The notes: generated from the sequence alone by a model not told the origin. Numbered from the stretch's first letter, positions 13,793-13,963 are shown. The stretch is DNA of 43,289 nt from Candidatus Magnetomicrobium cryptolimnococcus (GCA_018606805.1 JAGYWI010000020.1:1-43289), one strand, 5' to 3'. Program-made: numbers and translations.

Positions 13793-13963
13793 AAGAGGAG
13801 TGGCATACTATGTATATAATAATGATTTCATCAGAGTTAGCGCCGGTGGCAAAGGAAAAACATACCCTCTTTCCTTACGTAGGGGCACAAGAGCACACGG
13901 CTAAAATCCAATAATAGTGGAAACCATACCGCTTATAAGCCTTGAAGACATATGTTTTAATTA
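13793..13963 (+). repeat. Mosaic junction: ~63-bp copy of the glgA RBS/start (13793-13855) fused to direct repeat R (13852-13963, pyrG 3-prime end + ABC-ATPase start)
   Basis: 13793-13855 is near-identical to 17568-17632, and 13852-13963 is ~95 percent identical to 10215-10326. The junction is at a shared aagg. A 34-codon chimeric ORF (13810-13914, [34 protein letters not shown]) spans it. Confidence 0.85.

Follow-up and report, generated by a model that had tools for sequence, protein, structure and literature searches.

A 34-codon ORF lies directly upstream of an ABC-type ATPase gene (cbiO) in the genome of Candidatus Magnetomicrobium cryptolimnococcus (GCA_018606805.1), beginning as the glycogen synthase gene glgA does and ending as the CTP synthase gene pyrG does. 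This locus raises the question of how the ends of two genes that are both present nearby came to be fused, and whether the fusion matters for the gene that follows it. The window analysed here is the whole stretch JAGYWI010000020.1:1-43289, with a length of 43,289 bp. We regard the ORF, at a probability of roughly 0.6, as the place where an old illegitimate recombination, independent of RecA, joined the two sequences in the topology of a tandem duplication whose first copy now holds other DNA in its interior.

Composition of the chimeric ORF and of its locus

By self-BLASTN of the window, the region of the ORF aligns with two other places (Table 1). The glgA-side block comprises 61 bp with a single mismatch (98.4% identity, E 2e-23), and the pyrG-side block comprises 112 bp, ungapped, with 5 mismatches (95.5%, E 1e-45), which bears out the claim of a sequence-only reading of this DNA that three loci have common sequence and not mere low-complexity similarity. 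Both blocks overlap exactly over the AAGG at which that reading had placed the join, and no similarity is found on either flank of these bases. At the join, glgA position +46 meets pyrG codon 551 in direct orientation, the two sequences being on the + strand. The ORF translates exactly as had been given, in frame, with the glgA ribosome-binding site ahead of it and the ATPase GTG behind, and consists of 15 glgA codons and 19 pyrG codons (18 had been counted, the pyrG end itself being correctly recognised); the 15th glgA codon, Lys, is common to both through the microhomology. The 15 copied glgA codons stand, but the copy begins at 13795 and not at 13793. Its left edge is exactly the Shine-Dalgarno site, at position -15, with 15 nt copied 5' of the ATG, and its sole mismatch sits in the Shine-Dalgarno spacer and is found in both genomes compared below. 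The pyrG-side copy had been thought to end with pyrG, while in fact it runs 49 bp past the stop into the cbiO start. Between the TAA of the ORF and the GTG of cbiO there are 2 nt (TAA-TA-GTG).

Both parents are full-length in place and their Pfam domains are completely covered; the GlgA protein is 100% identical to that of Ca. Magnetoovum sp. WYHC-5. The ORF's tail has its parental copy in the final 20 codons of pyrG, counted from the AAGG at 10215. Since the similarity of PyrG to solved CTP synthases stops at residue ~551, which is the breakpoint, the duplicated tail appears to be a non-conserved extension, and the breakpoint seems to be tolerated by the pyrG copy. All 5 differences between the 112-bp copies fall within the 63-bp pyrG-coding part, with none in the 49-bp cbiO start. 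The pyrG-derived part of the ORF has 2 synonymous and 3 non-synonymous differences, plus one non-synonymous polymorphism. No sign of selection is apparent in the 34-aa peptide, which is most likely functionless and inert. In the source assembly the ORF is called as an unnamed gene; this call and the 15-codon cbiO stub left at the other copy should be flagged as recombination remnants, not as genes.

The stub is 100% identical to cbiO residues 1-15 (tblastn), and an alignment with orthologues shows this N-terminus to be the native one of cbiO. Because the pyrG-side repeat includes this native start, the adjacency of pyrG and cbiO (TAA-TA-GTG) appears to be older than the recombination event. 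NCBIfam places the ATPase nearest to the ECF/CbiO type, with matches to TIGR04521 and TIGR01166 that are under the curated cut-offs. It is an orphan, as neither cbiQ/cbiM nor another transmembrane partner is found among the neighbouring ORFs scanned with Pfam and NCBIfam, in contrast to an orthologue in locus L060, which sits after cbiQ.

Table 1. Features of the recombination locus and dispersed elements of the window, in the coordinates of the window
Feature	Position	Strand	Evidence or description
pyrG, CTP synthase, 569 aa	8568-10277	+	Pfam CTP_synth_N 1.9e-123, GATase 1e-39
Repeat copy 1: 63 bp of pyrG tail including the stop and 49 bp of cbiO start	10215-10326	+	112 bp, 95.5% to 13852-13963
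Orphan cbiO stub: GTG and 14 more cbiO codons, then TAA at the island boundary	10280-10327	+	translation VETIPLISLEDICFN*
Island, mosaic of mobile-element debris, 3468 bp	10327-13794	.	stands where the first copy's interior would be under the proposed origin
Rpn-family (PD-(D/E)XK_2) gene, frameshifted once into ORFs of 113 and 176 aa	11025-11944	-	TIGR01784 1.6e-9, PF12784 3.9e-5
ISAs1-family transposase, C-terminal stub	11964-12191	+	NF033564 1.2e-8, profile positions 283-314 of 314
FG-GAP / tectonin repeat fragment	12496-12996	+	PF01839 1.4e-14
DUF29 gene, final gene of the island, ending 24 nt before the chimeric ORF's ATG	13313-13786	+	PF01724 2.8e-47
glgA copy: Shine-Dalgarno site (GAGGAG) and first 15 codons	13795-13855	+	61 bp, 98.4% to 17571-17631
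Chimeric ORF	13810-13914	+	34 codons and TAA (13912-13914), in frame (translation)
AAGG microhomology, join point	13852-13855	+	exact overlap of both BLAST blocks
Repeat copy 2: pyrG tail and cbiO start, the latter functional here	13852-13963	+	self-BLASTN, copy comparison; matches 10215-10326
cbiO/ECF-type ABC ATPase, GTG start at 13917	13917-14579	+	PF00005 2.4e-30
MVP homologue, bacterial, shoulder/vault repeat protein	14620-17082	+	PF11978 1e-25, PF17795 4.2e-8
MVP-glgA spacer, 488 bp	17083-17570	+	21-nt hairpin tandem array (17160-17356) and promoter-like sites before glgA
Parental glgA Shine-Dalgarno site and first 15 codons	17571-17631	+	self-BLASTN
glgA, glycogen synthase, 489 aa, intact	17586-19055	+	PF08323 1.9e-66
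Palindromic elements, first five sites	2613-2962, 5575-5630, 5759-5968, 6007-6074, 19146-19235
Palindromic elements, other four sites	29665-29773, 29987-30128, 35722-35833, 36138-36263

From pyrG onwards, the locus consists of the 112-bp repeat, the 3468-bp island, a 61-bp glgA head fused at the AAGG to the second 112-bp repeat, the remaining cbiO, MVP, the 488-bp spacer, the other 61-bp glgA head and the remaining glgA. The two pairs of direct repeats interleave and bracket segments of near-equal size (3468 and 3607 bp). This interleaving, the duplicated cbiO start with its stub and the tandem-duplication topology had been missed by the sequence-only reading. The spacer has no counterpart at the chimeric junction, and no leftover similarity of the island to cbiO, MVP or the spacer was found by self-BLASTN or tblastn.

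The island has a GC content of 30-37%, against 42-47% in pyrG and glgA. The frameshift of its Rpn-family gene is seen by three-frame translation, one more FG-GAP repeat lies upstream of the ORF start of the FG-GAP fragment (tblastn), and an 83-aa ORF of no recognised type is also present. The ISAs1 stub matches annotated ISAs1 transposases on Nostoc and Fischerella plasmids (blastn); it is the sole match of the island to plasmid sequences, and phage sequences gave none. We found no integrase or recombinase domain in any island ORF (Pfam, NCBIfam) and no terminal inverted repeats at the island ends, and the whole window contains neither a tRNA, hence no tRNA attachment site, nor an Rfam family, hence no riboswitch before cbiO. 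The direct repeats of the island, 112 bp long vs the 2-14 bp of target-site duplication expected for an IS or transposon, lie at the pyrG 3' end and reach into cbiO, the right copy being fused to the glgA fragment. No second copy of the DUF29, 83-aa or 176-aa ORFs with at least 90% identity is present in the two assemblies compared here, and an exact-protein look-up recorded the DUF29 protein solely on a contig of the second one (JAKKUN).

The locus in a second genome and in more distant relatives

The comparison genome was that of Candidatus Magnetoovum sp. WYHC-5 (GCA_022760095.1, JAKKUN), an uncultured magnetotactic Nitrospirota coccus (PMC9106300). Contigs JAKKUN010000127 and JAKKUN010000193 show 99.4% identity to the window across about 14 kb and contain both junctions, each running into unique sequence on either side, so that the chimera does occur in a related strain, where the earlier reading had proposed to look for it. 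Of the 6 differences between repeat copies, 5 are common to both genomes (4 of the 5 in the pyrG tail and the single one in the glgA head), and the remaining one is a polymorphism that alters the peptide of the chimeric ORF (KHT vs KHA). Since the same junctions and these shared differences are found in both assemblies, the scar is genuine and fixed, and it predates the divergence of these genomes. A chimera of assembly or amplification, a junction that does not exist in the organism, could be suspected from a source of magnetically enriched uncultured cells and from short repeats that can mislead assemblers. However, two assemblies 0.6% apart both span each repeat into unique sequence, and the copy-specific substitutions of the repeats are common to them, which makes a chimera hardly credible.

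The sole strongly divergent stretch of the two assemblies lies between the FG-GAP fragment and the DUF29 gene (13116-13299 vs L057 387-629), where just a 64-bp piece is alignable, with 88% identity. This 64-bp element (13160-13223) recurs in locus L064 at 95% identity.

A scan of genome contigs found MVP homologues at 56 loci from many phyla, with 39-68% identity, and in none of the 56 is cbiO, pyrG or a close glgA beside MVP. The distribution is patchy (Vulcanimicrobiota, Synergistia, Bacillota, Myxococcota, Bacteroidota, Sericytochromatia and others; loci L001-L056) and without a conserved neighbour common to this locus, and therefore the MVP gene looks horizontally acquired here. In Ca. Venteria ishoeyi (L047), a distant glgA-like gene, 32% identical, is directly upstream of MVP. 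Orthologues of cbiO with 61-63% identity adjoin cbiQ or unrelated genes, and the closest relatives of glgA (70-73% identical) are without synteny. Metagenome scans with a glgA-start 28-mer and a cbiO-start 33-mer gave 0 hits each, MVP and the source cbiO were unrecorded in the exact-protein look-up, and a single-segment haplotype, with the island alone or cbiO-MVP alone, was not found among the genome or metagenome contigs searched. No syntenic outgroup was found in these searches, and the order of events proposed below is putative.

Origin of the junction

A microhomology of at least 4 bp has P = 0.018 for random breakpoint pairs between the glgA and pyrG regions. The junction thus shows an identity of a few bp above chance without long homology, which is what illegitimate recombination leaves, and on this point the microhomology-level event proposed by the sequence-only reading is supported. 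We suggest an ancestral order pyrG-cbiO-MVP-spacer-glgA, in which the cbiO GTG would have stood 2 nt past the pyrG stop. A crossover at the AAGG, either between chromosome copies (sister or sibling) or through slippage of a strand, would have fused glgA codon 15 to pyrG codon 551 and left both parents intact. Such a head-to-tail join would correspond to the tandem duplication of a ~3.78-kb unit that begins with the pyrG tail and ends with the glgA head. Everything inside the first copy (the remaining cbiO, MVP and the spacer) would later have been replaced by AT-rich mobile-element debris or, equivalently, would already have been replaced in one of two recombining haplotypes, leaving as remnants of the first copy solely 112 bp at its left end and 61 bp at its right end. 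At least 2 events are required, the join and the replacement of the interior.

RecA-independent spontaneous tandem duplications with 'promoter capture' at the join are described by Anderson & Roth 1978 and Li & Bock 2019, in the form in which PMC11111574 cites them; in the same source, citing Anderson & Roth 1978, duplication join points capture expression signals for neighbouring genes, including horizontally acquired ones. The locus resembles such join points in several respects. A distal sequence is joined head to tail and in direct orientation to a proximal one, with a few bases of microhomology, and both parental sequences are intact at their original places; moreover, the initiation signals of a downstream gene stand before the first gene of the unit, and a horizontally acquired gene follows. 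In contrast to them, the unit is no longer double, its first copy having been replaced by unrelated DNA, only a Shine-Dalgarno site and no promoter is left at the join, and the case is natural, old and fixed instead of laboratory-selected. As the whole unit is not found twice, we restrict the assignment to a duplication that was remodelled or to an unequal crossover of two differing haplotypes. The tandem duplication itself we infer from the topology, since nothing but the two ends is left of the supposed first copy.

A history with two haplotypes is possible, although we consider it rather unlikely. In this case, the island and cbiO-MVP would have been alternative segments between pyrG and glgA, and one AAGG crossover put both in tandem; in a variant, a fragment circularised at the AAGG would have entered by homologous recombination (Campbell-type) via one of the flanks, of 112 bp or 61 bp. 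Such a history would account for two segments of near-equal size with the same left and right flanks, and the distance of 4.5% between the 112-bp copies, vs 0.6% between the genomes, is explained by allelic divergence equally well as by age. The concentration of all differences in the pyrG tail, with none in the cbiO start, would be the patchiness expected from recombination of diverged alleles, but it is non-significant with both tail copies unconstrained (P ~ 0.14, our estimate). Under this reasonable null, we dropped the uneven spread as evidence of allelic origin. Neither single-segment haplotype was found in the genome or metagenome contigs, and the island haplotype would still require a separate event of its own. 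The two-haplotype and the duplication-first histories have the same AAGG join and differ only in the order of events.

More doubtful is a single complex replication-based event, with serial template switching of the MMBIR/FoSTeS type (PMC2583991), in which a fork broken at cbiO codon 16 would have copied about 3.5 kb from an ectopic template and 61 nt from the glgA start before re-entering at the AAGG, 112 bp behind the break. The short templated piece from 3.6 kb off and the back-step duplication at re-entry are typical of this mechanism, and microhomology is present at the one testable junction. The Rpn nucleases of the genome could supply the breaks. In PMC5350276, such nucleases were proposed to make the ends from which primer-template switching is primed, and several copies of the family exist here, a full-length 307-aa one included. 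However, the microhomology can be assessed at only 1 of the 3 junctions, the island ORFs for DUF29, 83 aa and 176 aa are without a second copy of at least 90% identity in either assembly, no source copy of the large insert being known, and a mosaic of unrelated fragments is an unlikely product of one 3.5-kb template. The mosaic island and the absence of a source copy weaken this history. It is very improbable that the island is an integrated mobile element, with the 112-bp repeats as attL/attR and an extra 3' end of pyrG carried by the element, the glgA fragment being cargo gained via imprecise excision. Direct repeats do bracket an AT-rich island at the 3' end of a housekeeping gene, but no island ORF encodes an integrase or recombinase, there is no tRNA, phage and plasmid similarity is nil except for the IS stub, the repeat is long and reaches into the next gene, and a site-specific model does not account for a glgA piece whose parent lies just 3.6 kb farther downstream at this locus. 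The lack of an integrase, of inverted repeats, of a tRNA and of a second DUF29 or 83-aa copy argues against site-specific integration, transposition and a recent templated copy; the first two, together with an assembly artefact, are effectively excluded.

The sequence-only reading had also thought of an Rpn-type event, for which the case is circumstantial. As in the E. coli Rpn system (YhgA-like, PD-(D/E)XK), an Rpn-family gene lies in the island and the family is multi-copy in the genome; unlike it, nothing at the junction is Rpn-specific, the local copy is frameshifted, and the family matched is PF12784, with a sub-threshold score, vs PF04754 in E. coli. A contribution of Rpn activity to the microhomology-mediated assembly of sequences in genomic islands was proposed, and no diagnostic junction signature was defined for these nucleases (PMC5350276). 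The Rpn copy of the island is a ~920-bp multi-copy unit, recently expanded in WYHC-5, whose cluster has 7 members with at least 90% identity on different WYHC-5 contigs; among the other copies (n=6) there is one full-length gene, with 307 aa. The unit has 89-96% DNA identity to L064 (4959-5928) and L065 (2788-3275). Since the paralogue at L065, an unrelated phage-like locus, likewise has a 113-aa N-terminal ORF, the split of the gene into an N-terminal nuclease part and a C-terminal ORF with (R/K)EEG repeats could be a common trait rather than an isolated frameshift. The split is comparable to the Rpn long/short toxin-antitoxin arrangement (PMC10400941).

Under the preferred reading, the join point of a remodelled duplication, the chimeric ORF is an ordinary, neatly resolved recombination scar, another example of a known event type that opens no new mechanism and no long-standing question. 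Its value is that of a clean, datable natural case of microhomology-level recombination remodelling a core neighbourhood close to the origin (gyrA-parAB-kdsB-pyrG...glgA) of an uncultured magnetotactic member of the Nitrospirota.

Possible translation across the scar and further observations in the window

The predicted SD:anti-SD energies are -9.3 kcal/mol for the chimeric ORF, -8.6 for glgA, -1.7 for cbiO and -12.0 for MVP. Thus, cbiO is without a Shine-Dalgarno site of its own, while MVP, which starts 40 nt beyond cbiO, has a strong one. The borrowed glgA region had been suspected of driving the ATPase and MVP genes. This does not hold, as the 15 nt copied are a Shine-Dalgarno site and not a promoter, and no sigma-70-like site is found on the + strand from 13524 to 13917. 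There is also no terminator-like site between the DUF29 gene and cbiO, and transcription of cbiO would come from upstream, from the DUF29 gene or beyond, the borrowed piece being promoterless.

The translational coupling that had been suggested for both genes is plausible for the ATPase, judging from its weak site 2 nt past a stop, but not for MVP, which would need no coupling because of its own strong site. In bacterial operons, translational coupling can take place by termination-reinitiation. With a GTG start, no Shine-Dalgarno site and a stop only 2 nt before it, cbiO has most likely always needed such reinitiation. The chimeric ORF has the features of a leader ORF, with its own Shine-Dalgarno site and start and a stop just before cbiO, and this geometry is that of the ancestral pyrG-cbiO pair; in contrast to operons, the upstream ORF is here an accidental chimera and not a bona fide gene, and the coupling is putative. 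Ribosomes from the glgA-derived start would terminate at the old pyrG TAA, 2 nt before cbiO, as they once did after pyrG, and the scar would probably preserve the termination-reinitiation coupling for cbiO. It may be that only the act of translating the ORF, and not its peptide, matters, and the accidental small ORF would then provide cbiO once more with its former translational context.

Only tentatively do we suggest that the scar was selected as a translational adaptor for cbiO, that is, a ribosome-binding-site capture by a duplication join point. According to this proposal, cbiO would ancestrally have relied on ribosomes finishing pyrG, and after 3.6 kb of foreign DNA split the two genes only a new in-frame Shine-Dalgarno site and ATG would have kept it translated. 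Selection of this kind would explain both the start of the glgA copy exactly at the Shine-Dalgarno site and the in-frame fusion, the latter having a 1-in-3 expectation by chance. If this proposal holds, the interleaved 112-bp and 61-bp repeats could in addition allow a population to drop the island or cbiO-MVP through plain homologous deletion. In plant mitochondria, recombination at short homologies gives rise to the ORFs of the CMS type, in which the 5' end and the expression signals of a housekeeping gene are fused to unrelated sequence and a new expressed ORF results. That is another genetic system, and the peptide has a phenotype there, whereas here it is most likely inert.

The window contains other repeats, which we considered as possible gene-end duplications akin to the scar and rejected, since they are intergenic palindromic elements. 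These REP- or terminator-like elements are dispersed in several families with 80-96% identity (Table 1), and some copies flank the parA...glgA block closely on either side. Tandem arrays of a 21-nt hairpin unit, CAGGGAGGTGTGCCTTCACAC, occur at 17160-17356, between MVP and glgA (9.3 copies), and at 43068-43131 (3 copies), after a gene ending at 43050. Overlapping alignments suggest that the copy number of the 17160-17356 array differs between the two assemblies of Magnetoovum. Purine runs of the (A)nG type (AAAAAGAAA repeats) adjoin REP-like hairpins at 42978-43044, 35722-35747 and 36138-36175, the first of them encoding the Lys/Glu-rich C-terminal tail of a 432-aa ORF.

On the - strand, 22697-26707 encodes a 1336-aa ORF without a Pfam match. 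Its middle (~residues 430-970) has about 12 copies of a 39-aa (117-bp) repeat, composed of 46% Asp, 28% Lys and 13% Ser, with an N-terminal hydrophobic helix before the repeats and a Cys- and Gly-rich C-terminal region behind them. The host deposits silica and magnetite inside its cells (PMC9106300), which makes this poly-ionic protein a candidate factor in biomineralisation.
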